From an uncultured Clostridium sp. (GTDB lineage: Bacteria; Bacillota_I; Bacilli_A; RF39; UBA660), in the NCBI GenBank assembly GCA_946402315.1, contig CAMIWC010000004.1, positions 17,509 through 81,508 of the forward strand: DNA of 64,000 bases. Direction: 5' to 3'. Below, piece by piece: positions 674 to 48,717 of this stretch; position 1 is the stretch's first letter; each line of letters starts with the position of its first letter. The notes beneath the pieces were generated by a model, which did no database searches, was not told where the DNA came from, and saw only the letters and a program-made list of their open reading frames with translations. The position numbers and the translations under genes were made by a program.

Positions 674-772
674 TCTGATTTTATCAGATTTTTTTTATAA
701 ATATGCCTGTTTTCTTGATATAGATGTCCATTTTTTGTTATACTATTTTTAGAGGATTCGGAGGTAAATAAT

Positions 773-2502: not shown

Positions 2503-2539
2503 AAGAATAAAAAGGCTAATTTATAAAGGAGGAATTGTT

Positions 2540-5170: not shown

Positions 5171-5189
5171 CAGGAAGAAGGAAAAATTT

Positions 5190-7741: not shown

Positions 7742-7754
7742 GTAGGTGAATAAT

Positions 7755-9068: not shown

Positions 9069-9078
9069 TGGTTGAATT

Positions 9079-10215: not shown

Positions 10216-10219
10216 GAAT

Positions 10220-11341
10220 ATGAAAATTATTATATTAAAAATAGGTATTGTTTTTATTAATATTATTTATTTCTTTATTAAACTTCTTCCAATTAGAAAT
10301 AAAATAGTATTTATTTCTCGTCAAAGTAATACTAAAACAGAAGATATGCTTCTTATTGAAGAAGAACTAAAAAAACAAGATAAAGATGTAAAAATAGTAT
10401 TCTTATGTAAGAAACTTGAGGGAGGTACTAAAGCAATTGGATACGTATTCCATATGTTTAGACAAATGTACCATCTAGCAACTTCAAGAGTGGTAGTACT
10501 TGATAGTTATTGTATAGTTGCGAGTATTCTTAAAAAGAAGAAAGGCACTACTATAATTCAAATGTGGCATGCTTTGGGTTCATTTAAAAAGTTTGGTTAT
10601 AGTGTACTTGATCAAGAAGAAGGAAGTAGTAGTAAATTAGCTAAAGTAATGAAGATGCATCATAATTACGATTATATATTTACTAGTAGTGAATTTAGTA
10701 GTAAGTACTTTGCTGAAGCATTTAATGCTGATAAATCTAAAATGGTTGTTATGCCTTTAGCTAGAGTTGATTTATTAACTTCTAAAAAACTAGATAAAGA
10801 ATTACAAGCTAAGATTTATAAAAAGTATCCTGAAACTAAAACTAAGAAGAATATTGTATATGTTCCTACTTTTAGAAAAGATGGAGAACGCCCTGAAAAG
10901 ATTAAAGAATTAATTGATGCGGTTGATTATAAGAAATATAATCTTATCTTAAAACTACATCCATTAACTAAGATTGATTTTGGAGATATTAAAGCAATCT
11001 ATGATAAAGATTTTTCTAGTATTGAAATGTTATCTGTTGCCGATTATGTAATTAGTGATTATTCAGCTATTATCTATGAAGCTTCACTTAAGAATAAACC
11101 AATGTATTTTTATTGTTATGATTATGATTCATATTTTAAAAAGAGAAATTTTTACTTAGACTACAATAAAGATATTCCCGGATTAAAAGAACAAGATGCT
11201 AAGAAATTAGTTAAAGCAATTGAAAAAGATAAATATGATTTTAAAGAGTTAAAGAAATTTAATGATAAGTTTATATCATATGAAGATGGTAAATGTAGTT
11301 ATAATATAGCTAAATTTATCTTAAGTAAAATGAGTAAGTAG
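10220..11341 (+). CDS. TagB/TagF-family CDP-glycerol glycerophosphotransferase with an N-terminal membrane helix
   Basis: Motifs QMWHALGSFKKFGY, VYVPTFRK, KLHP and ISDYSAIIYEA are present. Confidence 0.8.
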   Translation: MKIIILKIGIVFINIIYFFIKLLPIRNKIVFISRQSNTKTEDMLLIEEELKKQDKDVKIVFLCKKLEGGTKAIGYVFHMFRQMYHLATSRVVVLDSYCIVASILKKKKGTTIIQMWHALGSFKKFGYSVLDQEEGSSSKLAKVMKMHHNYDYIFTSSEFSSKYFAEAFNADKSKMVVMPLARVDLLTSKKLDKELQAKIYKKYPETKTKKNIVYVPTFRKDGERPEKIKELIDAVDYKKYNLILKLHPLTKIDFGDIKAIYDKDFSSIEMLSVADYVISDYSAIIYEASLKNKPMYFYCYDYDSYFKKRNFYLDYNKDIPGLKEQDAKKLVKAIEKDKYDFKELKKFNDKFISYEDGKCSYNIAKFILSKMSK

Positions 11342-33143: not shown

Positions 33144-34193
33144 ATGAAAGAAGTAAAAAAGGGTACTAAGAAAAAGAGTAGTACAACACCACCTAAGAAG
33201 ACTACTAAAAAGAAAGTAACTAATAAAAAGGTTACTCAAACTAAGAAAAAAGTAACTGAGAAGAAAGTTACTCCTGCAAAGAAAGCAGTTTCTAATAAGA
33301 AACAAATTAAAAGAGGGTTCACATTAATAGAGTTATTAGCAGTAATAGTAATTTTAGGCTTATTAATGGCAATTGCTATACCAGCAGTAACTAGATATAT
33401 TAATCAATCTAGAATGAAAACATTAGTATCAAGTATTAATGGTTATTTAGATGCTGCTACTATAGCTGTAAATGATAATGATTTTGGATCTATGTCTAAT
33501 CAAGATAATATTTATTATATTCCTGTAAGTAATATCAAGGATGATTCATGTATTAATCTTGAAAAAGGTGGATTAGATCCATATGGTAACTTTGTAGAAG
33601 CTTATGTAGTAGTTCACTACAATGCATCAGAGTACAAATATGATTATTATTTTACTTTTATAGATGATGCTGGTTATGGTATGAAGTTAACAAAAGTAGA
33701 TGAGATTAAGAGTAACGGAAAAGGACAAATAGTTAATCCTAGTCCAGTTAATCCATCAACTTCTGATTCTAATCAAATAACTATTCAAACTATAGATGAC
33801 GCAGTACCACATATATTAGGTTCTGATAGTTGTAGTGCTGCTAATAGTACTGTTGCAGGCGGATTTACACCAATTAATCCACCAATAAACCCACCAACAG
33901 GTGGAGGAAAATTCTATGTTAGAAGACAAATTAATGCTTGTACGACTAAAACATTTGAATTTAATATGGGAAGAGCTAAAATAAAATTTAGTGCTTGGGT
34001 TGAAACTGAAAACAATACTGATAACTGGCGTATTGGACCAACTGGAAAAGTTATAACAGGAACAGATACTAGAAATTTTGAAATAGATGGAGTAACTGGA
34101 GACTCATATATAACTACAGGAAAGACATATACTACTACAAATAATGGTGTACTTTTCCCATCAATCGTATGTAATGATCCAGTAGGTTCATAG
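33144..34193 (+). CDS. Pilin-like protein: 58-aa Lys-rich leader, prepilin G|FTLIE motif, conserved head and a Cys-containing C-terminal domain
   Basis: KRGFTLIELLAVIVILGLLMAIAIPA is a class III (prepilin) signal with Gly at -1, Phe at +1 and Glu at +5. An extended -10 promoter (TGaTATAAT) lies at 33119-33127. Confidence 0.8.
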   Translation: MKEVKKGTKKKSSTTPPKKTTKKKVTNKKVTQTKKKVTEKKVTPAKKAVSNKKQIKRGFTLIELLAVIVILGLLMAIAIPAVTRYINQSRMKTLVSSINGYLDAATIAVNDNDFGSMSNQDNIYYIPVSNIKDDSCINLEKGGLDPYGNFVEAYVVVHYNASEYKYDYYFTFIDDAGYGMKLTKVDEIKSNGKGQIVNPSPVNPSTSDSNQITIQTIDDAVPHILGSDSCSAANSTVAGGFTPINPPINPPTGGGKFYVRRQINACTTKTFEFNMGRAKIKFSAWVETENNTDNWRIGPTGKVITGTDTRNFEIDGVTGDSYITTGKTYTTTNNGVLFPSIVCNDPVGS

Positions 34194-34246
34194 AATTATA
34201 AGCATTGTGTTGCTATTTAATAATATAATTATAATGGGGTGATAAT

Positions 34247-35260
34247 ATGAAAGATAGTAAAAAAAGTACAAAAAAGAAAAGTGTTAAACCTACATCAAAG
34301 AAGACTACAAAAAAAACTACTAAGAAAGCAGTTAAAAAGACAGTTAAAAAAACTGCTGCTAAAAGAGTGAAAACAAAAAAAGGATTTACTTTAATAGAGT
34401 TATTAGCTGTAATAGTAATATTAGGATTATTAATGGCTCTTGCTATTCCTTCTATTACTAGATATATAAATCAATCTAGAATGAAAACTTTAGTAACTAG
34501 TATTGATGGATTTGTAGGTGCTGCTAGAGTTGCTGTAAATGATAATGATTTAGGATCAATGTCTGATGGTAATAAAATATTTTATATACCTGTTAATAAT
34601 AAAAAAGATGATTCATGTGTTTCTCTTGAAAAAGGTGGTACTGATCCATTTGGAGAATATGTTGAAGCTTACGTAGTAGTTTATTATAATGCTGCTGAAT
34701 ATAAATACGATTATTATTTTACATTTATAGATTCAGCAGGTTATGGAATGAAATTAACTAAGAGTGATGAAATTAAATCAAATGGAAAGGGACAAATTGT
34801 AAATCCTAGTCCAATAAATCCTTCAACAAGTGATTCTAATACTATAACTAGTCAAACAATTAATGGTGCGACACCTTATGTATTAGGAACTGGTAGTTGT
34901 AATGCTCAACAAAGTACTCCTGTAGTAATATCTGGTGGTGGTGGTAGTAATCCATCTACTCCTGCTGGAACATTTAAAGTAAGTATTAAACTAAATATAT
35001 GTAATATTAATACAAAAGAGTATACAGTTCCAAGTTCAAATATGAAATTTAGTACTTGGGTAAATAGTAGTGGTAATACTGAAGGATGGACAATAGATTC
35101 TCAAAACCGAGTAGTTTATTATGCATTCGATGGATTCTATTCATTAGATGGAGTAACTGGTAATTCAACTATTACTTTAGACAATACTTACACGACAACA
35201 ATGCATGATGTAAATCTTCCACAAGTATCTTGTAATCAAAACCCTTGGGATAGACCGTAG
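34247..35260 (+). CDS. Pilin-like protein, a tandem paralog of 33144-34193 with a 46-aa Lys-rich leader
   Basis: It carries KKGFTLIELLAVIVILGLLMALAIPS and the same head (NDNDLGSMS...YYFTFIDSAGYGMKLTK) and C-terminal domain. A terminator hairpin lies at 35323-35346. Confidence 0.8.
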   Translation: MKDSKKSTKKKSVKPTSKKTTKKTTKKAVKKTVKKTAAKRVKTKKGFTLIELLAVIVILGLLMALAIPSITRYINQSRMKTLVTSIDGFVGAARVAVNDNDLGSMSDGNKIFYIPVNNKKDDSCVSLEKGGTDPFGEYVEAYVVVYYNAAEYKYDYYFTFIDSAGYGMKLTKSDEIKSNGKGQIVNPSPINPSTSDSNTITSQTINGATPYVLGTGSCNAQQSTPVVISGGGGSNPSTPAGTFKVSIKLNICNINTKEYTVPSSNMKFSTWVNSSGNTEGWTIDSQNRVVYYAFDGFYSLDGVTGNSTITLDNTYTTTMHDVNLPQVSCNQNPWDRP

Positions 35261-35359
35261 TATTAAATTATTATTGCTATTTAATTAAAAATGTATTATT
35301 ATATAAGTGCATCGAGTGGAAGATTTCTTCCACTTTTTATATTATTTAGAGAGGTGTTT

Positions 35360-35617
35360 ATGGAAGAAAAATTAATAAACCTTATTAATCCTAGTATTAA
35401 GGATTTAAAAGTATGGGTAGATTCTATTAAAGTAGAACAAGAAGAAAATGAAACTTTTTTAAGAATAGCTTTAGATGCAGATTATATAATTGATCTTAAT
35501 ACTGTAGTTAAAGCTACAAGAATTATTAATCCAATACTAGATAAGGAAGATTTAGACTTAGATAATTATATGTTAGATGTTTATGCTAAACCAAAAGGAG
35601 ATAAAGAAGATGAATAG
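35360..35617 (+). CDS. rimP: Short RimP-like ribosome maturation factor (N-terminal domain only, 85 aa)
   Basis: It occupies the position directly upstream of nusA and overlaps it. The sequence ETFLRIALD...DNYMLDVYAKPKG resembles the RimP N-domain ending at the L-E-V-S-S-P-G position. The start is set at 35360, behind a GAGAGGTG SD. Confidence 0.5.
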   Translation: MEEKLINLINPSIKDLKVWVDSIKVEQEENETFLRIALDADYIIDLNTVVKATRIINPILDKEDLDLDNYMLDVYAKPKGDKEDE

Positions 35618-36683
35618 TAAAGAATTTTTAAAGGCAGTAGACCTAGTAGTACAAGAAAAAGGAATTGATAAAGAAGTAGTATTTGAAGCAATGGAACTTG
35701 CTTTAGCAACTGCTTATAAAAAGAATTTTGATTCTTTAACTAATTCTAAGATTGTTATTAATAGAGATACAGGAGATATTAAAGTATTCTCATATTTAAC
35801 AGTAGTAGAAGATGATTTTGAAGATATTGATCTAGATACAGAAATCAGTTTAACTGATGCTAGAAAAATAGATAAGACTTTAAATGTAGGAGATACTATT
35901 GATACTGAAGTTACTCCAAAAGACTTTGGACGTGTAGCTGCATCAACTGCTAAACAAGTAATAGTTCAAAAATTAAGAGAAGCGGAAAAGAATTCTATTA
36001 TTGAAGAATTTGGTAATAAAGAAGATGAATTATTAGTTGGTACAGTTGAGCTAGAAGATGTAGATAATTACTTTATTAACTTAGGAAGAAGTAATGGAAT
36101 ACTTCCTAAAAAAGAATGCATTCCTGGTGAAAAAATAGAAATGGGAAAACAAATAAAAGTATATGTTAGTAAAGTAGATGGTAGTGGTAAAGGAATGCTT
36201 ATTCTTTTATCAAGAAAACATTATGGATTCTTAAAGAGATTATTTGAACTTGAGATTCCAGAACTTTCTGATGGAACAGTACTTCTATATAGTGTTGCTA
36301 GAGACGCTGGAAGTCGTTCTAAAGTAGCAGTTTATTCTGAAAGAAGCAATATTGATCCAGTAGGGGCATGTATTGGTGAAAGAGGAAGTAGAATTGCTCG
36401 TATAATTGAAGAAGTAAATGGTGAAAGAATAGATGTAGTAAGATATGATAAAGAACCTGAAACATTTATTGCTAACGCCTTACAACCAGCTAAGAATTTA
36501 CATGTAATTATAACTGATCCTAAAAAACAAGAATGTATCGTAGTTGCTGATGATGATAACTTCTCATTAGCTATCGGTAAGAAAGGTGAAAACGCTAGAC
36601 TTGCTTCTAAATTAACTCATTATAAGATTGATGTTAAGAATACAGAACAAGCTAGAGAAATGGGAATTAATTTCATTAATTAA
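35610..36683 (+). CDS. nusA: Transcription termination/antitermination factor NusA
   Basis: It contains an S1 domain and KH domains (GACIGERGSRI, AIGKKGENARLA). The start is set at ATG 35610 (sequence MNSKEFL...). Confidence 0.95.
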   Translation: MNSKEFLKAVDLVVQEKGIDKEVVFEAMELALATAYKKNFDSLTNSKIVINRDTGDIKVFSYLTVVEDDFEDIDLDTEISLTDARKIDKTLNVGDTIDTEVTPKDFGRVAASTAKQVIVQKLREAEKNSIIEEFGNKEDELLVGTVELEDVDNYFINLGRSNGILPKKECIPGEKIEMGKQIKVYVSKVDGSGKGMLILLSRKHYGFLKRLFELEIPELSDGTVLLYSVARDAGSRSKVAVYSERSNIDPVGACIGERGSRIARIIEEVNGERIDVVRYDKEPETFIANALQPAKNLHVIITDPKKQECIVVADDDNFSLAIGKKGENARLASKLTHYKIDVKNTEQAREMGINFIN

Positions 36684-36685
36684 TT

Positions 36686-36952
36686 ATGAAACAAAGAAAA
36701 GAAGTATTTAGGACTTGTGTAATTACAAAAGAAAAATTACCTAAGAAAGACTTACTTAGAATAGTAAGAACTCCTGAAGGTAATATTGAAGTAGATTTAA
36801 CTGGTAAATTAAATGGTAGAGGTGCTTATATAAAAAAGGATATTGAAGTACTAGAAAAAGCTAAGAAAGGAAATGCTTTAGGAAAACATTTAGAAGTAAA
36901 TATTCCTGATAGTGTATATGAGCATATAAAAGAAATAATAGAAGAAAAATAA
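36686..36952 (+). CDS. ylxR: YlxR/DUF448-family RNA-binding protein
   Basis: Motifs RTCVITKEKLPKKDLLRIV and GRGAYI are present, and it sits in the position between nusA and infB. Confidence 0.85.
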   Translation: MKQRKEVFRTCVITKEKLPKKDLLRIVRTPEGNIEVDLTGKLNGRGAYIKKDIEVLEKAKKGNALGKHLEVNIPDSVYEHIKEIIEEK

Positions 36953-36973
36953 GAAAGAAGAGGTGAATTCTAT

Positions 36974-39100
36974 ATGATGAATTTATTAGAATATTCAGAA
37001 GATGTTAACAAAAGTTTAGAAGAAATAATGGAGTTATGTGATAAGTTAGAAATTGCTTATGATGATGAAAACTCTATGCTTACTGAAGATGATATCATCA
37101 TTTTAGATAATGAAATTCAAGACATGGAAGATTACGTAGTTTCAGATGAAGAAACTGAATCAGAAGAAGCTCTTGATGAAGCCGTAGAAGATCTTATTAC
37201 TACAAATAATATTAAAATAGATAATGAAAGTAATATAGAGAAATTAAAATCTAAAAAAGATAGAGTAGAAAGTACTCAAAATAATAATTTCAAAAAAGAA
37301 AGAAAAAATATCTATAAACATCGTGATAAATTACAATCTAATGAAGATGAAACTTTAAAAGAAAAGATTATCTACAAAGAAGATATGACAGTAGCAGAAC
37401 TTGCTAACGAATTAAAGGTTTCTAGTGTAGAGCTAATTAAGAAACTAATGAAATTAGGAGTAATGGCTAATGTAAATTATCCTTTATCTTTTGAAGTAGC
37501 AGAACTTCTTGTAATTGATTATGGTAAAGAAGTTACTAGAGAAGAAAATGCAGATATTTCTAACTTTGAAAATTATGAAATACATGAAAAAGATAAAGAC
37601 TTAATAGATAGACCGCCAGTAGTAACCATAATGGGACATGTAGACCATGGTAAAACATCACTACTTGATGCAATTAGAAAAACAGATGTAGTCAGTGGTG
37701 AAGCTGGAGGTATTACTCAAGCAATAGGTGCTTATCAAGTAGAATTAGATGGTAAAAAGATTACATTTATAGATACTCCAGGACATGAAGCATTTACTGA
37801 GATGAGAGCTAGAGGTGCTAGTGTTACTGATGTGGTTGTAATAATTGTTGCTGCAGATGACGGGGTTAAACCTCAAACTAAAGAAGCAATTGACCATGCT
37901 AGAGCTGCTAAAGTACCTATAATTGTAGCAATTAATAAAATAGATAAACCAGAAGCAGATGTTAATCGAATTATGACTGAACTTACTGAATATGGATTAA
38001 CTCCTGAAGAATGGGGTGGAGATATTGTTACTAATAAAATATCTGCTAAGACTCATGAAGGAATTAAGGAACTTCTAGAAAGTATAATCCTAGTAAGTGA
38101 AATGGCTGAATTAAAAGCTAACCCAAATAGATATGCAATGGGTACAGTAATTGAGTCAAGATTAGATAAAAAAGTCGGTACAATTGCAACACTTCTTGTT
38201 CAAAACGGAACTTTAAGACTAGGGGACCCAATAGTAGTTGGTACATCTTTTGGTAAAGTAAGAACTTTAAAGAATGATAAAGGACAAGATATTATATCAG
38301 CTCTACCTTCTACTCCTGTAGAAATAACTGGACTTAATGAAGTACCATCTGCTGGAGATAAGTTCATGTCTTTTGAAACTGAAAAACAAGCTAAAGCTAT
38401 AGCTGAACAAAGAAAAGAAAGAGCTAAAGCTGCTGATACTAATAAGAGTGGTATGACTTTAGAAGATTTATTTGGAGCTATCCAAGAAGGAAAGAAAGAA
38501 ATTAATGTTGTACTTAAAACAGATGTTAATGGTTCATTAGAAGCTATTAAACAAAGTTTATCTAAGATAGATGTAGAAGGAGTTAAAGTAAATATTGTTT
38601 TAGGTGGAGTAGGTACTATTACTGAAAGTGATATTACTTTAGCTAATGCAAGTGATGCTATTATCTTAGGATTTAATGTAAGACCTAGTGGTAATATTAT
38701 TGATCTTGCTAAGAATTACAATGTTGATATACGTTTATATGATATTATTTACAAAATGATTGAAGATATTGAAAATTCAATGAAAGGATTACTAGATCCA
38801 GTATTTGAAGAAGAAATAATTGGTCATGCTGAAATAAGACAAATATTTAAATTCTCTAAGATTGGTAATATTGCAGGATGTCATGTTACTGATGGTTTAA
38901 TTAAAAATAACTATAATGCAAGATTAATTAGAGATGGTATTGTTATATACACAGGAAAGATTAAATCAATTCAACACGAAAAAGATCAAGTTAAAGAAAT
39001 AAAGAAAGATATGGATTGTGGAATTACTTTAGAGAACTTCCAAGATATCAAAGAACTTGATGTAATAGAGTGTTATGAACTTAAAGAGATTAAAAGATAA
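36974..39100 (+). CDS. infB: Translation initiation factor IF-2
   Basis: It has the GTPase motifs [14 protein letters not shown] and NKID, and it lies in the nusA-infB-rbfA operon. Confidence 0.95.
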
Positions 39101-39435
39101 TGAGTTTAAGAATAGATAGATATAACAGTACTTTTCAAAAAGTAATTAGTCAGATACTTATGGAAACAAAGAATCAAAAACTTAAATCTGTTGTTTTAAC
39201 AGGAGTTGAAATAACTAATGATTTAAGTTATGCCAAAGTATATTATACAGTTTTAGATAATGTAGATAAAAAAGAAATAAAAGATTCTTTAGAAAGAAAT
39301 AAATCTTTCATAAGAGGACAAATCAGTAAAAGAGTAGATATTAGACATACTCCTGAATTAAGATTTTACTATGATGAATCCATAGAATATGGGGAAAAAA
39401 TAGAAAAATTGATAACTGATATTAACACAAAGTAG
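39100..39435 (+). CDS. rbfA: Ribosome-binding factor A
   Basis: It has the expected size and position, the motif VDIRHTPELRFYYDES, and an ATGA overlap with the infB stop. Confidence 0.9.
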   Translation: MSLRIDRYNSTFQKVISQILMETKNQKLKSVVLTGVEITNDLSYAKVYYTVLDNVDKKEIKDSLERNKSFIRGQISKRVDIRHTPELRFYYDESIEYGEKIEKLITDINTK

Positions 39436-39456
39436 TGTCAAGCACTACTTTTTTTA
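39431..39456 (+). terminator. Rho-independent terminator of the nusA-infB-rbfA operon
   Basis: The stem is AGTAGTG / CACTACT and is followed by a T-run. Confidence 0.75.
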
Positions 39457-39489
39457 TTTTTCAGGTCTTGTTTTTGTGGTATAATAAAA

Positions 39490-39698
39490 TTGTCTAAAGG
39501 AAAGGATGTTTTCTTTTAAAACCGACTAAGTTTACGATAAGGGAGTTCGGATCATTAACCGGTGTTGAATGCCATTAATCTTGGAATCCTAAAGGTTAAG
39601 TATGGACACCCACCTGCTTGATTAGGGGCGGGTTTTATCGCTAAACATTCTTCTTCTAGACAATTGTTAAAAAAAAGAAGAGCAAGTGCTCTTCTTTT
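39490..39698 (+). ncRNA. Structured intergenic ncRNA candidate, possibly 6S RNA (SsrS-like)
   Basis: It has its own extended -10 promoter (TGgTATAAT, 39477-39485). A ~21-bp closing helix forms between 39490-39511 (TTGTCTAAAGGAAAGGATGTTT) and 39643-39663 (AAACATTCTTCTTCTAGACAA). Inner pairing AAAACCG/CGGGTTTT is possible. The region is locally GC-enriched. A terminator follows at 39675-39698. No ORF is present. Confidence 0.45.
39675..39698. terminator. Bidirectional rho-independent terminator shared by the ncRNA candidate (+) and lexA (-)
   Basis: The stem AAGAAGAGCA / TGCTCTTCTT is flanked by an A-run on one side and a T-run on the other. Confidence 0.7.
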
Positions 39699-39704
39699 AC
39701 TTTG

Positions 39705-40322
39705 TTAAAATTTTCTGTATAATCCAACTACTTTACCAAGAATAGATACTTTATCTAAAATAATAGGACTCATAGTATCATTTTCTGGTTGTAATCTAAA
39801 ATGTCCATTTTCTTTATAGAACGTCTTAACTGTAACTTCATTGTTATCAGTCATTGCAACTATCTTTTCTCCGTTTAAAGCAGTATTTTGTCTTTCTACA
39901 ATAATTATATCTCCATCATAGATACCAGCATTAATCATTGATTCTCCATTAACAAGTAGAGTAAATATTTCTTTCTTACCATTTATTAATGTAGTAGGAA
40001 GAGAAAAATACTCATTAGGAGTTTCAATTGCTTCAATAGGATTCCCAGCTGTAACTTTTCCTAGTAAAGGTACATTTACAACATCTTCATTCTTTTCTTC
40101 AAATTCATTTTCTACAAGAAGTTCTAGAGTTCTATTTTTACTATTATTTTTTCTTATATATCCTTTTTCTTCTAGCTTATTTAAATGAAATTGAGTAGTT
40201 GCAGGAGAAGATAAATCTAAAGCAGAACCTATTTCTCTAACAGTAGGTGGATATCCATGAGAAGCCATAAATTTTTTAATAACTTCTAGTATGTCATTTT
40301 GTCGTTTTGTTAACTTTTCCAT
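39705..40322 (-). CDS. lexA: LexA repressor
   Basis: It has a winged-HTH N-terminus (LTKRQNDILEVIKKFMASHGYPPTVREI), an Ala-Gly cleavage site (KVTAGNP), and the Ser (GESM) and Lys (VTVKTF) of the S24 peptidase dyad. The start is set at 40322 because the predicted promoter (-10 at 40344-40349) lies inside the longer ORF-track version. Confidence 0.9.
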   Translation of the reverse strand: MEKLTKRQNDILEVIKKFMASHGYPPTVREIGSALDLSSPATTQFHLNKLEEKGYIRKNNSKNRTLELLVENEFEEKNEDVVNVPLLGKVTAGNPIEAIETPNEYFSLPTTLINGKKEIFTLLVNGESMINAGIYDGDIIIVERQNTALNGEKIVAMTDNNEVTVKTFYKENGHFRLQPENDTMSPIILDKVSILGKVVGLYRKF

Positions 40323-40353
40323 AACATCACTCCATTCATCTATATGATACAAC

Positions 40354-40382
40354 AAACGTATGTTTTTGTCAAACAACTGTTC
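40354..40382. promoter_or_regulatory. Two SOS-box-like palindromes in the lexA promoter
   Basis: AAACGTATGTTT (40354-40365) and AAACAACTGTTC (40371-40382) are variants of the Gram-positive LexA box GAAC-N4-GTTC. Box 1 sits in the 17-nt spacer of the minus-strand promoter (TTGACA at 40367-40372, TATCAT at 40344-40349). Box 2 overlaps the -35 element. Confidence 0.6.
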
Positions 40383-40471
40383 AATTATAAAAAGAGTTGA
40401 CTTTTATAACAGTTTTTGTTATTATAACCTCTTAACGAAAATTAGTAGTTAAGAGTTTGGGGGAGATTTCT

Positions 40472-41308
40472 ATGAGTATGGCAACACTTGTTTACTCTCT
40501 AGGGGATCCAATGAATGAAGAAATTCTACTTACTGGATCACTTAGACAAATCGATAATGATACTCGATTATATGCAGATGAAGTAGAAATGAAAAATAGT
40601 CCTGAGTTCAATTATAGAATACAAACATATCTAGAAAGAACATTAGGAATTGATAATGCTAATCCAAATAAACAAGGAAGATTTATATTGTATTTCATCG
40701 AGAATAACGCAAGTAGAGAACAATTATCAATATTATATGATGACCAAAAACCAGTGATTACTAAATTAAATAATATGTATGGAGATAATAGTACTACTGA
40801 TATAGAAAGAGCTAGAAAACTATTATTCTCAAGCAAAGGGAAGTTGTTCGTAAGACAAGTAATGAAAGAAGATTGGTTTAGAGATACAACTGGATGCTTA
40901 GTTAAATTAAAACAATTTGAAGCAAAAGAATTAGTGAGTGCTGGATATAAACCATTATTTAAAGATGGTGATTATTACTTGACTATAGAAGATATCTTAG
41001 ATTATTCTTCTAAAAAAGAAAAACTAGGATTTATGAGAGATCTAGTAGAAGATACTCTTGAAATATGGAAAGGTAAATTAGAAGAACAAGATGAAGATAT
41101 TCTATATTATTACTCAAGAAACTTAAGAATGAGTATTAATAAATATTATAAATCAATAAATGGTCCAAAAGCTGTTGTAAACTTCATGCCAGAAGTAAAT
41201 ACATTAGCTAACGTCATATATATAGGAGGAAAAGTAAATCGTAGAAGAAAAGGTTACTACATTTCTCCTAGAAGTAGTAAAGTAAAGAAAATGGATACTG
41301 CTGCATAG
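40472..41308 (+). CDS. Hypothetical cytoplasmic protein (278 aa), divergent from lexA
   Basis: It has a GGGGGAG SD and its own promoter (TTGACT 40397-40402, 17 nt, TATTAT 40420-40425). I recognised no family. Confidence 0.6.
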   Translation: MSMATLVYSLGDPMNEEILLTGSLRQIDNDTRLYADEVEMKNSPEFNYRIQTYLERTLGIDNANPNKQGRFILYFIENNASREQLSILYDDQKPVITKLNNMYGDNSTTDIERARKLLFSSKGKLFVRQVMKEDWFRDTTGCLVKLKQFEAKELVSAGYKPLFKDGDYYLTIEDILDYSSKKEKLGFMRDLVEDTLEIWKGKLEEQDEDILYYYSRNLRMSINKYYKSINGPKAVVNFMPEVNTLANVIYIGGKVNRRRKGYYISPRSSKVKKMDTAA

Positions 41309-41387
41309 TATCCTTTTTATTTTGCAAAAGAGGTGTTATAATTAAAACTAGAGAGATAGTAAATCTCAATAGAAAGAAGGATAAAAT

Positions 41388-42053
41388 ATGAATGAAAATA
41401 TGACACCAAACATGAATCAACCAGAACCGGTAGCAGTACCAACTACACAACCACCAAAGAAAAATACCTCAGTTGTTATTATCTTATTGATTATTGTATT
41501 ATGTGCTGCAGCAGCAGGAGGAATCTGGTATTTAGGAAATAATAAAGCAAAGGATAAGGAAAAAGAAGAACCAACACCTACAACACCAGCAAATCCAACA
41601 AACCCAACAGATCCAACTACACCTACTGACCCAACGACTCCAACTGATCCTACAACTCCTACAGATCCAACTACACCAACAGATCCAGCTACTCCAACAC
41701 CATCTGGAACTAAAACATTATCTTGTACACAAGAACTTGGAGAATACAAATCAGTTACAGAATATGTATTTACTAATAGTGTATTATCCGTAATTAGAAT
41801 TAGTGTAGTATGGAATTTCTCTAATTTAGATGATAATACTATTCAAACTTATAAAACATTAGATATGTGTTCTTCAATGGGAAATCCATCTGAGGGAGAA
41901 GAATATACACTTAAAAATTGTAAAGCAACATGGTCTGGAAAAATTTTAACTATATCTTATGATATGGAAATTCCTGATGAATATAAAGTTGTTACAATTG
42001 ATGCGTTACAAACAGAATTAACTTCTGGTGATCAAACTTGTACAATAAAATAA
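41388..42053 (+). CDS. Membrane-anchored exported protein with a PTDPTT repeat linker and a Cys-containing C-terminal domain
   Basis: An N-terminal TM helix (VVIILLIIVLCAAAAGGIWYL) is followed by five PTDPTT units and then a globular domain with 4 Cys. A terminator lies at 42053-42077. Confidence 0.65.
   Translation: MNENMTPNMNQPEPVAVPTTQPPKKNTSVVIILLIIVLCAAAAGGIWYLGNNKAKDKEKEEPTPTTPANPTNPTDPTTPTDPTTPTDPTTPTDPTTPTDPATPTPSGTKTLSCTQELGEYKSVTEYVFTNSVLSVIRISVVWNFSNLDDNTIQTYKTLDMCSSMGNPSEGEEYTLKNCKATWSGKILTISYDMEIPDEYKVVTIDALQTELTSGDQTCTIK
41604..41693 (+). repeat. Five tandem 18-bp coding repeats (PTDPTT) with synonymous differences between units
   Basis: The units are ccaacagatccaactaca / cctactgacccaacgact / ccaactgatcctacaact / cctacagatccaactaca / ccaacagatccagctact. 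Confidence 0.85.
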
Positions 42054-42115
42054 AGTACGTATTAACGTACTTTTTTATTTGACCTTTTTTGATATAATTA
42101 AATAGAGGGTAAAAT

Positions 42116-43054
42116 ATGGAAGACTTTAATGAAGAATTAGAAAAATTATTAAATGATTTAGAAGACGTAAATGGTAAAAAAGAATTGTCTGAATATTTAA
42201 AATATCTTAAATATCAAAAAAATTATTCTGATTATACTATTATTAATTATGGTGATGATATAAAAGAATATTTATTATTTTTACATGAAAAGAACATTAA
42301 TCTTTATAAGATTACCTATGAAGAAATAAGATTATATCAAATAAATCTAAATGATAAAAAAGATATTAATTCTACTATATCTAGAAAGATAAGTGCCTTA
42401 AGAGGTTTTTATAAATACTTAGAAAATGAACATAAAATGGAAAATAATCCTTTTTCATTAATTAATCTTCCTAAGAAAGATAAAAAACTACCTAGATTTT
42501 TCTATTACAATGAATTAGAAGAATTATTTAATACACCTAAACTTAATACTGCGACTGGTCAAAGAGATAGATTAATATTAGAAATGTTATACGCTACAGG
42601 AGTACGTGTAAGTGAACTTGTTAATATAAAAGTATCGGACATAGGAGATCATACTATTAAGATTCTTGGTAAAGGTAATAAAGAAAGAATAGTAAGATAT
42701 GGAGACTATTGTGAAGAAATATTAAATATGTATTTAGGAGATGGACATTATAAATTAAATTCATCTAGTGAATATTTGTTTTTAAATAATAGAGGAGGAC
42801 AACTTACAGATAGAGGAGTAAGATTTATTCTTGATAAGATTATAGAAAAGACTACTATTGAGAAAAAGATTTCTCCACATATGTTAAGACATAGTTTCGC
42901 AACTCACTTACTTAATGAAGGATGCGATATTTTAACAGTGCAAGAACTACTTGGGCATGAGAGTTTAAGTGCTACTGCAATATATACTCATGTTACGAAT
43001 GATAGATTAAAAGAAGTATATTTTAAAACTCATCCTAGAGCTAAGAAAAAGTAG
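42116..43054 (+). CDS. XerC/XerD-family tyrosine recombinase
   Basis: It has an N-terminal SAM-like core-binding domain and the catalytic residues in ATGVRVSEL, HMLRHSFATHL and LGHESLSATAIYTHV. Confidence 0.85.
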   Translation: MEDFNEELEKLLNDLEDVNGKKELSEYLKYLKYQKNYSDYTIINYGDDIKEYLLFLHEKNINLYKITYEEIRLYQINLNDKKDINSTISRKISALRGFYKYLENEHKMENNPFSLINLPKKDKKLPRFFYYNELEELFNTPKLNTATGQRDRLILEMLYATGVRVSELVNIKVSDIGDHTIKILGKGNKERIVRYGDYCEEILNMYLGDGHYKLNSSSEYLFLNNRGGQLTDRGVRFILDKIIEKTTIEKKISPHMLRHSFATHLLNEGCDILTVQELLGHESLSATAIYTHVTNDRLKEVYFKTHPRAKKK

Positions 43055-43092
43055 TATAATAAAATTAGAATAGAATAAAAGGAATGAATAGT

Positions 43093-44559
43093 ATGGCTCA
43101 AACTAAAAAGAATAATAGTAAAAAGAAAAAGATTAACAGTACTAAAAAAACAGTTAAGAAGACTAATATTAAGAAAAAAGTAGAGAAAAGAGGTTTTACT
43201 TTAATAGAACTTCTTGCAGTTATAGTAATTCTTGGCCTTTTAATGGCGATTGCTCTTCCAGCAGTTACAAGATATATTACACAATCTAGAAAAAAGACTT
43301 TAATGAAGACAATAGATAACTTTATAACTTCTGCTATGACTAGTACAAATGATAATGATTTTGGTTCTATGTCTGATCCTAATAAAATATTTTATATACC
43401 AGTACATAATGAAAAAGATAAGTCATGTGTTGAATTAGAAAAGGGTGGAAAAGATCCATTTGGTAATTGGAAAGAAGCGTATGTAGTAGTAGCTTATAAT
43501 CCTGATGAATATAAGTATGAATACTATTTTACTTTTTATGATGATTCTGGTTACGGAATGGAGTTAACAAAATTAAATGATATTAAAATGTCTAGTATAA
43601 CTAATCCAACTAGTATGAAAGAAGATAATATAACTGGACAAACAATTAATGGTAGAGAGATAAATCTTTTAACTGAAAGTTGTAATGCCAGAGATGCAAT
43701 AGTAATTGGCTCAAATGCACCTATATCAGAAAGAATATATTGGGCACTTCAAGACAATGATGCCAATGGTACGGATGAAACATTAGTATTTTCAAAATAT
43801 TCTGTTAACGGTACACATAGTGGAGATTTTGCAGGTTCAACGATATTTGGTAATTATAGTAATGTTCCATGGATAAATGGTAGTATATCTTCTAATTTAA
43901 GTAAAGATGTTACAAAAGTTAAAGTACAAAGCAGAATATCTCCAAGAAATATGAGTTTCTGGTTTTATGGAGTAGGATATAATGCGGAGTCATTCTATGC
44001 TGATTTAAGAAATATAGATGTTTCTAATGTAACTGCGATGGGAAGTATTTTTAATAGTGCAGGATATAATGCTAAAACTTTTTATTTAAATGTTAATAAT
44101 TGGAATACTTCAAAATCAACCAGTTTTGGATCAGCATTTACAAATGCTGGATTAAGATCTCAGTCATTTAGAATTGTTGGATTAAGTAAATGGAATACAT
44201 CTAGTGCAACATCTTTTACATATATGTTTACTAATGCTGGAAATGTTGCCACAACCTGGGATATTGGAGACATAAGTCAATGGGATACATCTAAGGTAAC
44301 TAATATGTATAATATGTTTAGTTGTACCGGGCAAAATGCTTCAACATATAAGTTGGACTTAAGTGGTTGGGATACTTCTAAAGTAACAAATATGACTACA
44401 ATGCTTAATAATGCTGGTACAAGAGCAACTAATTGGGAAATTAAAATACCAAAAACAAATGGAAATGGTATTAATAATACAACAACTGCAATGTATGGAA
44501 GTACTACATCTGTTGTAGCTGTTCCTAATGCAGGAAGAAGTTTTACAATAGCAGAATAA
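43093..44559 (+). CDS. Pilin-like protein with a 34-aa Lys-rich leader and a C-terminal DUF285/BspA-type repeat domain (5 repeats)
   Basis: It carries KRGFTLIELLAVIVILGLLMAIALPA and the same head as 33144/34247 (NDNDFGSMSD...YYFTFYDDSGYGMELTK), followed by repeats W(N/D)TSKVTNMxxMF. The start is set at 43093 (MAQTKK), homologous to the start of the next gene. Confidence 0.8.
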   Translation: MAQTKKNNSKKKKINSTKKTVKKTNIKKKVEKRGFTLIELLAVIVILGLLMAIALPAVTRYITQSRKKTLMKTIDNFITSAMTSTNDNDFGSMSDPNKIFYIPVHNEKDKSCVELEKGGKDPFGNWKEAYVVVAYNPDEYKYEYYFTFYDDSGYGMELTKLNDIKMSSITNPTSMKEDNITGQTINGREINLLTESCNARDAIVIGSNAPISERIYWALQDNDANGTDETLVFSKYSVNGTHSGDFAGSTIFGNYSNVPWINGSISSNLSKDVTKVKVQSRISPRNMSFWFYGVGYNAESFYADLRNIDVSNVTAMGSIFNSAGYNAKTFYLNVNNWNTSKSTSFGSAFTNAGLRSQSFRIVGLSKWNTSSATSFTYMFTNAGNVATTWDIGDISQWDTSKVTNMYNMFSCTGQNASTYKLDLSGWDTSKVTNMTTMLNNAGTRATNWEIKIPKTNGNGINNTTTAMYGSTTSVVAVPNAGRSFTIAE

Positions 44560-44581
44560 TTATATAAAAGAGATGAATAAT

Positions 44582-46597
44582 ATGACTCAAACAAAAAAGA
44601 ATAATAATAAAAATAAAAAAAATGTTAAGAAGACTCATGTTAAGAAAAACTCACCAACAAGGAAGATTCAAAAAGAGAAAAAGGGATTTACTTTAATAGA
44701 ACTTCTTGCGGTTATAGTAATTCTAGGTCTTTTAGTTGCTATAGCTCTTCCAGCGGTTACTAGATATATTACACAATCAAGGAAGAAAACTCTATTAAAA
44801 ACAATGGATAGTTTTATAAGTGCTGCAATGACTAAGGCTAATGATAATGATTTTGAATCTATGTCTGATCCAACTAAAATATATTATATTCCTGTACATA
44901 ACGAGGTTGAAAAATCATGTGTTGGTCTTGAAAAAGGTGGAATAGATCCATTTGGTAATTGGGTAGAAGCTTATGTAGCAGTAATATATAATCCAGATGA
45001 ATATAAATATGAATATTATTTTACCTTCTATGATGATGCAGGATATGGAATGGAATTGACTAGGGAAGATGAAATAAAAACAAGTAGAATAACAAATCCA
45101 ACTGAAATGAATCATACTACCATTACTCAACAAACAATAGGTGATAGAGAAGTAAATGTGCTCGAAATAGGTAGCTGTAATTCTGATCATACGACAATAG
45201 TAGATACTCCAGTAGAAGTTACTAATACAATATACTGGGCTCTACAAGATAATGATTCAAATGGAACAAATGAAACTTTAGTGTTTTCTAAAAATTCTGT
45301 TACTGGAACATATAGCGGAAATTTTTTGGGAACAAAAGCATTTATAAATAGTACAGAAATACCATGGATAGGAGCGGGCTTTAATTCTTCGAATAACAGA
45401 AGTAAAGATGTATCTGTTATAAAAGTAGAAAGCACTATAGCTCCGACATCAACACAGTTTTGGTTTGATGGGGTTGGTTATAATAGTACTTCACTTAATA
45501 TAGATATTAATAAACTTAACACTTCAAATGTAATCAGTATGGATTCAATGTTTTCTTATTTTGGATATAATGTGACGAATTTTAGGTTAGATCTTAGCAA
45601 TCTAAAAACTTCAAAAGTAACAAATATGAAGAATATGTTTGCAGGAGCTGGATATAATTCAACAACATTTAGGTTGGTTTTGAAAAATTGGAATACATCC
45701 AAAGTTACTGATATGTCTCGCATTTTTAATATTACAGGAAGAAATGCAAATTCATATGTTATTGAGGGTTTAAATAGATGGAATACATCTAATGTTACCA
45801 ATATGGCTAGTGCTTTTTATATGGCGGGTAATGCTGCTACAACATGGGATATTGGTGATATTAGTAATTGGAATACATCTAAGTTAAATAATATGATGTC
45901 GATGTTTTATCAAGCTGGTGCTAATGCAACTTCGTTTAAAATAGATGTAGGAAAATGGAATGTTTCAAATGTTACAACAATGAATCAAGCATTTCGTTAC
46001 GCTGGTCTTAATTCTTCTTCGTGGAGCATTGGTGATTTGAGTAATTGGAATATAGGTAATGTAACGGATATATGTGGATTGTTTGCTGATACTGGTAAAA
46101 ATTCAGCAATGTGGAGTGTTGGTGATTTAAGTAATTGGGATACATCAAAAGTAACAAATATGACTTGTATGTTTGATTATTCTGGATATAAAACTACAAA
46201 TTGGTATGTTGGTGATTTAAGTAATTGGGATACATCAAAAGTAACAAATATGACTTGTATGTTTGATTATTCTGGATATAAAACTACAAATTGGTATGTT
46301 GGTAATTTAAGTAATTGGAATACGTCAAAAGTAACAACAATGAATAATATGTTTTGGCTTGCGGGAGGACAATCAAAATCTTTTGAATTAGATATTAGCG
46401 GATGGAACACATCAAAAGTATCAAATATGTCTAATATGTTTAGGCAAACTGGCTTTGGAGCAACAACATGGAAAATAAAAATACCAAAAACAAATGGTAA
46501 TGGAATTAATAATACTACAACAAAAATGTATGGAAGTTCTTCAACTGTATATGCCGATCAACCTGATCCTGGAAGATATTTTACTCTAGCAGATTAA
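44582..46597 (+). CDS. Pilin-like protein with a 35-aa Lys-rich leader and a C-terminal DUF285/BspA-type repeat domain (11 repeats)
   Basis: It carries KKGFTLIELLAVIVILGLLVAIALPA, the conserved head, and 11 copies of the W-N/D-T-S-K-V-T-x-M-x-x-M-F repeat. The C-terminal tail (KIPKTNGNGINNTTT) is shared with 43093-44559. Confidence 0.8.
   Translation: MTQTKKNNNKNKKNVKKTHVKKNSPTRKIQKEKKGFTLIELLAVIVILGLLVAIALPAVTRYITQSRKKTLLKTMDSFISAAMTKANDNDFESMSDPTKIYYIPVHNEVEKSCVGLEKGGIDPFGNWVEAYVAVIYNPDEYKYEYYFTFYDDAGYGMELTREDEIKTSRITNPTEMNHTTITQQTIGDREVNVLEIGSCNSDHTTIVDTPVEVTNTIYWALQDNDSNGTNETLVFSKNSVTGTYSGNFLGTKAFINSTEIPWIGAGFNSSNNRSKDVSVIKVESTIAPTSTQFWFDGVGYNSTSLNIDINKLNTSNVISMDSMFSYFGYNVTNFRLDLSNLKTSKVTNMKNMFAGAGYNSTTFRLVLKNWNTSKVTDMSRIFNITGRNANSYVIEGLNRWNTSNVTNMASAFYMAGNAATTWDIGDISNWNTSKLNNMMSMFYQAGANATSFKIDVGKWNVSNVTTMNQAFRYAGLNSSSWSIGDLSNWNIGNVTDICGLFADTGKNSAMWSVGDLSNWDTSKVTNMTCMFDYSGYKTTNWYVGDLSNWDTSKVTNMTCMFDYSGYKTTNWYVGNLSNWNTSKVTTMNNMFWLAGGQSKSFELDISGWNTSKVSNMSNMFRQTGFGATTWKIKIPKTNGNGINNTTTKMYGSSSTVYADQPDPGRYFTLAD
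46121..46300 (+). repeat. Perfect 2 x 90-bp tandem duplication inside the DUF285 repeat region
   Basis: 46121-46210 and 46211-46300 read identically base for base (ggtgatttaagtaattgggatacatcaaaagtaacaaatatgacttgtatgtttgattattctggatataaaactacaaattggtatgtt). Each copy encodes GDLSNWDTSKVTNMTCMFDYSGYKTTNWYV. Confidence 0.95.
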
Positions 46598-46602
46598 TCA
46601 AT

Positions 46603-47183: not shown

Positions 47184-47217
47184 AATGCACCTCTTTCGAG
47201 TTATTATACTACTTTTA

Positions 47218-48717
47218 TTATTCTTTGTAATTATCTATTAGAGTAGTATCTACTTTTTTATCTGGATTGGCATCTAAATAAGTTCTATTATAATTTTGTA
47301 TCATTCTAACTGCTTCCTTACCAGAATAAATAACTTCTCTTCCTGTTGGTTCGATTACTCTTAAGAATAATCTTCCTTGATGATCTATATCTTCTTGTAT
47401 TTCAATACCAGTAGTAAGTTTAATAAATTGATCTCTATCATAGTTAGGATTTGAATAATTACCTATAAATTCATCTCCGTATGTTGTTTTAACAGGAGTA
47501 TCATATGTAGGTAAGAATGAATTAGTTTTTTGTGTTTGATTATCTATAAATGCTGGTGGAGGAGTAGTAGTTTCTTCTATAGTTCCTGTAGGAATAAATT
47601 GATTAACAGGAATGGTTATATTAGATACGTCCTCATTTTTATTATCTTCATAATCTACTGCAGGAGTAGCTAAAGTATCATTCTTATATTGATTTAAGAA
47701 ATTCTTAATCATTTCTTCATTTTCGTTTTTAGTTTCTTCTGGTTCTGAAGATACACCAGAAGGAGCAGTTAAATCATTAAAGTCATTTGAAAAACTAGTT
47801 GGTGGTGGAGCTATTTCAACTACCGGTGCTTGTGGAGTTGGATCCATTACTTGAGTTGGTATTTGTTTAATTTCTACATTCTTTGGCATTTCATACGGTT
47901 CATCTGGCCAATTAGAAGTATCAGCTTTTCTTCCTGGATTACTAGATTCATATAATTGGTTATAACTCTTCAACTTTTCAATCGCAGCATTACCAATTAA
48001 TTCAGTTCTATTACCCATACTATCAACAATAGTTAGAGTAACTTTTCCATCTTTCATTCCTTCTTTGATTTCTATTTCCATTGTTTTACTTATGAAGTTA
48101 TCTCTATCTTCATTTGGATAAGATTCATCTATCGTAGTATCAACATTACTATTAACATAATTAATCTCATCACATAACTTAAATAATTCTGGTAAGTTTT
48201 CTCTAGAGAAATCATTTATTAATGTTTCTGTATATATAGAATAAAAAGTACCTATTGCATCATTTAATATTTGATCAACATCATATTCATGACCTACATA
48301 ATTAGGATTAGTTTGACTTATTAAATAAAGAATAGTACCTTTAATTTTAATTATCATATCAGAATACTCTGGTATTTTATTTATATTGTTAACAGCCTTA
48401 GATAGATTTGTAGTTACTTCATTCATATCTCTAGCTAATTCACTTAAACTAAGTGATTCATCAATTCTATGAATTCCGGCATTATCAAAAGATGTCTTCA
48501 AAATATTTGAATACATTACAAAAGAATTATCTATGACTTGTTTAATTTGATTTCTATCAATAATAATATTGAATTCAAGTAAAAGTCTTTCTAATTTTTC
48601 TATTGCATCATTAATAGAACGATCTTTTAAATCGGACTTTCTTTCAATATTATTTACAAAGTCATTTAGATACTTGATTAATAATTCATTATACTTAATA
48701 ACGCCCTCTTTATTCAT
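47218..48717 (-). CDS. Hypothetical protein (499 aa) with an internally duplicated ~70-aa domain and a Pro-rich linker
   Basis: The two copies are ...RDNFISKTMEIEIKEGMKDGKVTLTIVDSMGNRTELIGNAAIEKLKSYNQLYESSNPGRKADTS and ...RDQFIKLTTGIEIQEDIDHQGRLFLRVIEPTGREVIYSGKEAVRMIQNYNRTYLDANPDKKVDTT. Confidence 0.6.
   Translation of the reverse strand: MNKEGVIKYNELLIKYLNDFVNNIERKSDLKDRSINDAIEKLERLLLEFNIIIDRNQIKQVIDNSFVMYSNILKTSFDNAGIHRIDESLSLSELARDMNEVTTNLSKAVNNINKIPEYSDMIIKIKGTILYLISQTNPNYVGHEYDVDQILNDAIGTFYSIYTETLINDFSRENLPELFKLCDEINYVNSNVDTTIDESYPNEDRDNFISKTMEIEIKEGMKDGKVTLTIVDSMGNRTELIGNAAIEKLKSYNQLYESSNPGRKADTSNWPDEPYEMPKNVEIKQIPTQVMDPTPQAPVVEIAPPPTSFSNDFNDLTAPSGVSSEPEETKNENEEMIKNFLNQYKNDTLATPAVDYEDNKNEDVSNITIPVNQFIPTGTIEETTTPPPAFIDNQTQKTNSFLPTYDTPVKTTYGDEFIGNYSNPNYDRDQFIKLTTGIEIQEDIDHQGRLFLRVIEPTGREVIYSGKEAVRMIQNYNRTYLDANPDKKVDTTLIDNYKE

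Follow-up and report, generated by a model that had tools for sequence, protein, structure and literature searches.

Two tandem prepilin genes joined to DUF285 solenoids in an uncultured Clostridium sp.

Introduction

What kind of protein is made by two adjacent genes that place DUF285 surface repeats behind the processing signal of a type IV pilin, and does this arrangement amount to a new way of anchoring such repeats? Here, we focus on a pair of this kind, located at positions 43093 to 46597 of a stretch of 64,000 nucleotides (nt) of contig CAMIWC010000004.1 (the window, throughout this text), which comes from an uncultured Clostridium sp. (assembly GCA_946402315.1; GTDB lineage Bacillota_I; Bacilli_A; RF39; UBA660). 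An earlier note, drawn from the sequence of the window, had described the pair as a pilin module with a Lys-rich leader fused to DUF285/BspA-type repeats, and had seen in it a modular display system, which could be an adhesin presented at a pilus tip or by a pseudopilus, or a novel anchoring mode for DUF285 proteins. We find that the gene pair is a catalogued architecture and that it carries no new principle. As to its function, we lean towards the reading in which the products of both genes are type IV pilins of the modular kind and would present a DUF285 solenoid on a filament built by machinery encoded elsewhere.

Examples of modular pilins are known from Streptococcus sanguinis, in which PilB carries a vWA adhesin module grafted onto a pilin and PilC a lectin module (Raynaud et al. 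2021, PMC8179133). The InterPro survey of that paper counted over 1,200 'modular pilins', distributed over 264 architectures. A 2023 review treats such proteins as an accepted strategy and describes the leader length as variable among type IV pilins (PMC10191384). The repeat has its own literature, and the paper devoted to PARCEL/DUF285 describes lipoprotein, signal-peptide and transmembrane (TM) topologies, while pilins are mentioned 0 times in it (Roske et al. 2010, PMC2996958).

The gene pair and its domains

Both genes lie on the + strand of a window of about 27 % G+C, and the list of open reading frames (ORFs) gives them as 43084-44559 and 44573-46597. In each ORF, the second ATG (43093 and 44582) is found 9 nt 3' of a Shine-Dalgarno-like element (AAGGA/AAGAG), and the lengths counted from there equal those of the database proteins P0122 (488 amino acids, aa) and P0121 and P0241 (671 aa), which is why these starts are likely correct. 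Gene 1 (43093..44559, +) encodes a modular prepilin of 488 aa in which a leader, an alpha1 helix, a head, a DUF285 solenoid and a tail follow one another, an assignment that draws on the ORF, the ribosome-binding site (RBS), the identity with P0122, the Pfam and NCBIfam matches and an AlphaFold2 model. Gene 2 (44582..46597, +) encodes a prepilin of 671 aa on the same plan, according to its ORF, its RBS, its domain matches and its identity of about 100 % with P0121 and P0241. The same genes are present on two independent assemblies, in contigs of 73,833 and 100,392 bp, so the pair is not an assembly artefact.

The leader of gene 1 (43093..43194, +) has 34 aa, of which 15 are K or R, and reads MAQTKKNNSKKKK...KRG/FTLIE, the slash standing for the predicted cleavage site; that of gene 2 (44582-44686, +) has 35 aa, 14 of them K or R, and reads MTQTKKNNNKNKK...KKG/FTLIE. 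Both are hydrophilic and end in Gly, as the leader of a type IV pilin ends in Gly or Ala, and this Gly is followed by FTLIELLAVIVILGLL, the junction of gene 1 being KRG/FTLIELLAVIVILGLLMAIALPAV. Together, G-1, F+1, E+5 and the subsequent hydrophobic stretch of about 21 residues make up a class III signal. Since neither gene has a start codon between the leader and the G/FTLIE motif, the long leader belongs to the ORF. We also considered that the leaders could originate from an over-extended ORF, and rejected this because the RBS stands 9 nt before the leader ATG and no start codon follows it.

The profile searches place the two halves of the architecture in each polypeptide. Pfam N_methyl (PF07963) scores 29.8 bits in protein 1 and 31.3 bits in protein 2, for a curated cut-off of 21.2, and its NCBIfam counterpart TIGR02532 scores 32.8 and 31.1 bits (cut-off 16.3). 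On the side of the repeats, DUF285 (PF03382) reaches 84.8 and 195.9 bits (cut-off 25) and TIGR02167, the PARCEL repeat, 48.1 and 136.5 bits (cut-off 30). The co-occurrence of N_methyl and DUF285 that the earlier note had proposed to look for is thus found in both proteins, and the assignment of its repeat to DUF285/TIGR02167 stands. The other half of its label, 'BspA-type', is sound only as a naming convention: LRR_5 (PF13306), the BspA-type LRR, gave no match at E<=0.01 in either protein. With N_methyl and DUF285 in one polypeptide, the proteins are modular pilins as defined by Raynaud et al. 2021 (PMC8179133).

The repeats are tandem units of 29-30 aa, and an in-register listing confirms the five and eleven copies that had been counted before. 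The five units of protein 1 span residues 308-447 (44014..44433, +) and are matched by PF03382 and TIGR02167, and the eleven of protein 2 span residues 312-629 (45515..46468, +), where PF03382 matches too and TIGR02167 matches in 8 stretches. The DNA that encodes them forms direct-repeat families with a periodicity of 87/90 nt. In gene 2, a 90-bp tandem of 2.5 copies that are 97 % identical (46117..46337, +) corresponds to repeat units 8 and 9 and represents a recent unit duplication. A search for inverted repeats (>=14 nt) through 43900-46600 returned only three weak 17-nt pairs, a result that is not comparable with the analysis in the PARCEL paper of dyad symmetry in the coding DNA, to which the 'palindromic' in the definition of PARCEL refers.

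After the repeats, both proteins end in the common tail reported earlier, W-x-IKIPKTNGNGINNTTT-x-MYGS...GRxFT(I/L)A(E/D), which reads W-E-IKIPKTNGNGINNTTTAMYGS...GRSFTIAE in protein 1 (44434..44556, +) and W-K-IKIPKTNGNGINNTTTKMYGS...GRYFTLAD in protein 2 (46469..46594, +). Of 34 homologues that combine N_methyl and DUF285, about 20 keep this tail, as IPKTNGNG...FT(L/V)A. We observed that its extreme C-terminus, G-(K/R)-x-F-T-(L/V/I)-A-x, superficially echoes the (K/R)-G-F-T-L-I-E prepilin motif (in P0122, P0121 and about 20 homologues); this echo may be just the last strand of the solenoid cap.

The head and its predicted structure

Between the signal and the repeats lies a conserved head of about 165 aa with one Cys pair. 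In gene 1, the segment from the mature N-terminus FTLIE through alpha1 (residues 37-86) to the second conserved Cys (C112...C197) occupies 43195..43683 (+), as delimited by N_methyl, TIGR02532, the AlphaFold2 model and the invariant Cys pair, and in gene 2 the head runs up to C199 (44687-45178, +). The same head is found upstream, in a first tandem pair of 349 and 337 aa (33144..35260, +), whose leaders have 58 and about 46 aa and which alignment shows to end in a different, Cys-bracketed C-terminal module that has no Pfam match. The earlier description, with leaders of 34 and 35 aa and with a G/FTLIE motif and head shared with the first pair, is borne out. In a four-way alignment of the two pairs, the sequences are near-invariant from G/FTLIE as far as the second Cys of the conserved pair (C112/C197 in protein 1), and the two pairs diverge completely 3' of it.

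An AlphaFold2 model of protein 1 built from 42 homologues has a predicted local distance difference test (pLDDT) of 90.8, and that of the head alone gives the same model at 89.5. Residues 1-29 fall below 50, so the leader is predicted to be disordered. A 50-residue helix (37-86) is then followed by antiparallel strands at 98-103, 126-136, 141-150 and 155-160, by a linker of lower confidence at about 201-210, and by a regular array in which every 29-30 residues contribute one short strand and at the end of which the C-terminal cap is modelled confidently (pLDDT 95-98 over the tail). In this model, the helix and sheet resemble the 'lollipop' plan of pilins, with the solenoid placed after it. A phmmer search of all PDB sequences matched type IV pilins only, over alpha1 (residues 25-89), with 9laa PilA as the best match (E=4.6e-8). 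From their sequences, each of the two proteins is thus predicted to consist of a class III signal, a pilin-like alpha1, a disulfide-bracketed head, a DUF285 solenoid of 5 or 11 turns and a conserved cap.

A conserved head with exchangeable cargos

A search with the head alone returned 458 matches, nearly all of them metagenomic proteins of 180-350 aa with N_methyl as their only domain, those with names being called 'type II secretion system protein [Bacilli bacterium]'. A head-family profile, run against 1.84 billion 50 %-cluster representatives, then recovered 1,953 proteins at E<=1e-10, of which 416 reached E<=1e-30. For a census of the cargos, we scanned with Pfam the 90 newly returned proteins of at least 280 aa among the best 150 profile matches. 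DUF285 was found in 21/90, LRR_5 in 8/90 and Flg_new in 4/90; Dockerin, Laminin_G_3 and DUF6273 occurred in 2/90 each, PT-HINT and the M26 peptidase N-domain in 1/90 each, and the rest of these long members have no recognisable additional domain. Bare head-family pilins of about 190 aa also occur. This census identifies the head as a reusable carrier, for which DUF285 is the commonest identifiable cargo.

The family comes from uncultured Bacilli of animal guts. When the species representatives of GTDB were scanned, the head was found in metagenome-assembled genomes (MAGs) of uncultured Bacilli and Erysipelotrichaceae (goat rectum, rabbit, sheep rumen, Hadza gut), with a few matches in MAGs labelled Muribaculaceae or 'Bacillota bacterium', and the clusters at >=90 % identity of the IF-2 and XerC of the window contain proteins named '[Bacilli bacterium]'. 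There are several head-family loci per genome; they lie between housekeeping genes, and their pilin genes frequently form tandems of 2-4. At the loci L011-L016 (e.g. L013:9256-10500), we also observed a tandem of a different prepilin of about 180 aa, which has no head motif, and a bare head-family pilin, conserved in many related MAGs; the clade may have its core pair of structural pilins in this tandem.

The gene pair itself offers a view of how the cargo changes. It follows a gene for a XerC-type tyrosine recombinase (42116..43054, +), identified with Pfam and with relatives at >=90 % identity that are named XerC, and the orthologues of this gene in other assemblies (L029:401-1339, L031:529-1467 and L032:3728-4666) have a nucleotide identity of about 84 %. 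In all four genomes, a head-family pilin gene begins 18-38 nt 3' of xerC, a spacing that suggests co-transcription. The occupant of this site is the tandem of 488 and 671 aa in the window, where genes for 182 aa (-), 499 aa (-) and 177 aa and then ileS follow; it is one DUF285 pilin of 546 aa in L029, with the downstream flank as in the window, a bare pilin of 193 aa followed by rimP-nusA in L031, and a pilin of 247 aa in L032, where lexA, two unknown genes and xerC lie upstream. Identity is 84 % through xerC and 66-74 % through the head, and it is lost in the cargo of L031 and L032. This loss of homology at a syntenic site supports an exchange of cargo on evolutionary time scales. The comparative check for cargo swapping that the earlier note had proposed finds a slot whose content differs among related genomes, and both this slot and the census bear out the modular system of one head with exchangeable cargos proposed in the earlier note.

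The recombinase gene next door prompts the idea of a shufflon or invertible element. This was considered and rejected, as neither inverted recombination sites nor alternative C-terminal cassettes were found beside the recombinase gene, and the inverted-repeat searches gave only weak AT-rich pairs and one perfect 16-mer; the repeat searches at the locus gave no evidence of recombinase-driven switching within a genome. The perfect 16-nt inverted repeat is AAAAGTAGTATAATAA, at 43047-43062 / 47201-47216, which brackets the pilin pair and the gene of the 182-aa membrane protein and is absent from L029, and by a rough estimate about 0.15 such perfect 16-mer matches would be expected by chance. Both of its arms include TATAAT and are placed just 5' of the start of a gene, so the repeat probably reflects a -10 promoter element that the two have in common.

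Long Lys-rich leaders

The leaders of the four prepilins of the window are unusual. For the 271 head-family members in which the motif is recognisable, leader length has a median of 7 aa and a 95th percentile of 20 aa, and the syntenic relatives have short leaders, while those of the window (33144-33317, 34247-34384, 43093-43194 and 44582-44686) have 58, about 46, 34 and 35 aa and are all Lys-rich. Lys-rich leaders of 21-42 aa exist in only a handful of other family members, and we noted similar extensions in the unrelated members P0282 (42 aa), P0224 (28 aa) and P0151 (27 aa). Some of the DNA that encodes the leaders consists of a tandem repeat of low complexity. The long leaders may be a low-complexity expansion in an A-rich genome, or they could be a functional cytoplasmic extension.

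How the proteins may reach the cell surface

We can now consider how such proteins would work. The reading that we lean towards starts from a DUF285/PARCEL solenoid grafted onto the head through a linker of about 10 residues. The Lys-rich leader would be kept in the cytoplasm, following the positive-inside rule, and a prepilin peptidase encoded elsewhere would cut after Gly-1. The hydrophobic alpha1N would then allow entry into a type IV filament as a subunit of low abundance, probably located at the tip, and the filament would carry the solenoid through a wall that contains teichoic acid, as its ligand-binding, adhesive part. Among the uncultured gut Bacilli of this lineage, the head is a carrier that occurs bare or fused to many modules, and the pair itself would have arisen by tandem duplication followed by a change in repeat number.

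Several points weigh against this. The 34-58-aa leaders are far outside the norm of the family, so that their processing by the peptidase is only predicted, and the adhesive role of DUF285 is one that we infer. Foldseek searches of the PDB gave no significant match to a solved pilin or to anything else, the best E values being 0.9 for the head-only model and 3.3 for the full one, so the fold assignment rests on topology. Finally, no gene for a prepilin peptidase, an assembly ATPase or a platform protein was found in the 64-kb window, of which nearly all ORFs of at least 100 aa were scanned with Pfam. A regular-expression scan for GspE-type Walker A/B motifs, His boxes and the A24 GGGD(V/I)K motif in 29 sequences (the window and 28 loci, 540 kb) matched only the Walker A of an ABC transporter, although so crude a search would overlook divergent proteins. 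With no machinery in the window or in these roughly 540 kb of loci, the cognate filament system is only putative in these genomes.

In an appreciably less probable reading, the prepilin signal would be a general route of anchoring or export instead of a ticket to the pilus: the proteins, cleaved or not, would be tethered in the membrane by alpha1N or form only a short pseudopilus stub, and the head would act as a display stalk for diverse surface modules, in a manner likened to the archaeal sugar-binding proteins that have class III signals. It is favoured by the number of prepilin genes, which is at least 9 per MAG in the loci sampled from two MAGs, by their location among housekeeping genes and never next to pilus machinery in the loci examined, and by cargos such as dockerin and PT-HINT, which are atypical of pilus-tip adhesins. 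However, filament assembly is what selects for a conserved E+5 and for an alpha1 of full length, and the bare members of about 190 aa with the same head resemble structural pilins of the usual kind and are found in tandem arrays. Furthermore, a membrane-tethered protein of 450-640 aa would be buried beneath the wall and its teichoic acid. A broader form of the idea, which we regard as doubtful, would make the prepilin signal and head a general surface-display chassis, with at least 9 orphan genes per genome and DUF285 as its favourite cargo, standing in for sortase or lipoprotein anchoring; the long leaders would then be a functional cytoplasmic element and not low-complexity drift, acting for instance in the timing of processing or export.

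It is improbable that the proteins are subunits of a Com-type pilus or of a pseudopilus like that of the type II secretion system, that is, members of the ComGC/GspG family with an add-on. The NCBIfam matches do include GspG, ComGC, ComGD and ComGE, and NCBI names the relatives 'type II secretion system protein', but these matches are confined to the N-terminal 45 residues or so and lie far below the equivalog cut-offs (GspG 33.9 and 30.4 bits for a cut-off of 88.85; ComGC 22.6 and 22.9 bits for a cut-off of 75). The 64-kb window has no comG operon near the pair, and the mature proteins have 454 and 636 aa, against 84 positions in the ComGC profile.

Very improbable, in the end, is chance or an artefact, be it a mis-assembled or decaying fusion or an over-extended ORF with untranslated A-rich 'leader' DNA. 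AAA-rich stretches are indeed common in a genome of 27 % G+C and the leader DNA is partly repetitive, but the two assemblies, the RBS and the absence of another start before G/FTLIE speak against it, as do the 21 distinct 50 %-cluster representatives that combine this head with DUF285 and the 34-58 stop-free in-frame codons that all four paralogues keep 5' of the motif.

Relation to known systems

The modular pilin reading finds its closest counterpart in PilB and PilC of S. sanguinis, with which the pair shares the IPR012902 signal and small pilin module, the short linker, the bulky module of non-pilus origin and a monoderm host. The differences are in the cargo, which is a DUF285/PARCEL solenoid here and a vWA or lectin module there, in the genes, which are orphan here and belong to clustered pil genes in S. 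sanguinis, and in the leader, which has 34-35 Lys-rich residues against 7 aa in PilB. In addition, the head has no detectable structural match among solved pilins (Foldseek against the PDB), and the present proteins are known from sequence only, unlike PilB and PilC.

The repeats, in turn, connect the pair to the LppQ-type lipoproteins of Mycoplasma and to what NCBI names the 'BspA family'. They are matched by the same repeat hidden Markov models, with units of about 25-30 aa in which the hydrophobic positions are conserved and the hydrophilic ones vary, and the number of repeats varies between paralogues as it does in the DUF285/PARCEL surface proteins. Membrane targeting differs, as it relies here on a prepilin signal and in the PARCEL proteins on a lipobox, an ordinary signal peptide or a TM segment, and the array is capped here, unlike theirs, by the conserved IPKTNGNG...FTLA tail.

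A third comparison is PilV of the R64 thin pilus, a type IV minor pilin whose variable C-terminus specifies the ligand and is rearranged by the Rci shufflon. As in R64, the C-terminal part varies and the gene adjoins a tyrosine recombinase gene. Unlike in the R64 shufflon, neither inverted sfx-like repeats nor oppositely oriented C-terminal cassettes were found at the locus; the variation is between genomes here and within a clone in R64, and the recombinase here is annotated as the housekeeping XerC.

The fusion was already on record. Dataset S1 of the modular pilin survey lists IPR012902-IPR005046 (N_methyl-DUF285), with 9 proteins that have one DUF285 match, 4 that have three, and others (PMC8179133). 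When protein 2 was used as a query, a recognisable prepilin motif was present in 34 of the best 120 of 6,831 matches, and most of these 34 are annotated with both PF03382 and PF07963. Given this entry and these relatives, the novel anchoring mode suggested in the earlier note does not hold. That note had tied novelty to the architecture not being already common and characterised: it is common and catalogued, while no member has been characterised by experiment, and no paper that treats the fusion came up in a literature search on DUF285 combined with pilin.

Genomic surroundings

The position of the pilin genes also differs between genomes. In L031 and L032, the order lexA, two unknown genes, xerC and pilin stands directly upstream of rimP-nusA, whereas in the window the first pilin pair is separated by rimP-nusA-infB-rbfA from the block that runs from lexA to xerC and the second pair (33144-43054). 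Because of this difference in gene order, the paralogous pilin genes mark a breakpoint of rearrangement or duplication.

Close to the pair, a 221-aa protein (41388-42053) begins with a TM segment, continues with a Pro/Thr-rich (PTDPTT)n linker and has Cys in its C-terminal domain; Pfam gives no match to this protein, which is probably also exposed on the surface. On the other side, the 499-aa protein (47218-48717, - strand), also without a Pfam match, has a 510-aa counterpart downstream of the pilin locus in L029, and its halves look internally duplicated, with a Pro-rich linker between them.

At its start (11-11341), the window carries a cluster of teichoic-acid type, with four or five TagF-like CDP-glycerol glycerophosphotransferases and an IspD-like cytidylyltransferase, along with GT2 glycosyltransferases and a MBOAT/DltB-like acyltransferase. 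Since TagF-type enzymes are encoded there, the organism is probably a wall-bearing monoderm, despite a G+C content like that of mycoplasmas, and this wall would have to be crossed.

Conclusions

Mycoplasmas and gut bacteria carry abundant DUF285/PARCEL repeats on their surfaces, and modular pilins have been proposed as a general way to obtain sticky type IV pili. The two meet in one large clade of Bacilli, uncultured and from animal guts, with DUF285 as the commonest recognisable cargo on one conserved pilin head. This makes for a compact family, composed of head, linker, solenoid and cap, which is suited to a search for the ligands of DUF285 and to asking if subunits of this size enter filaments.

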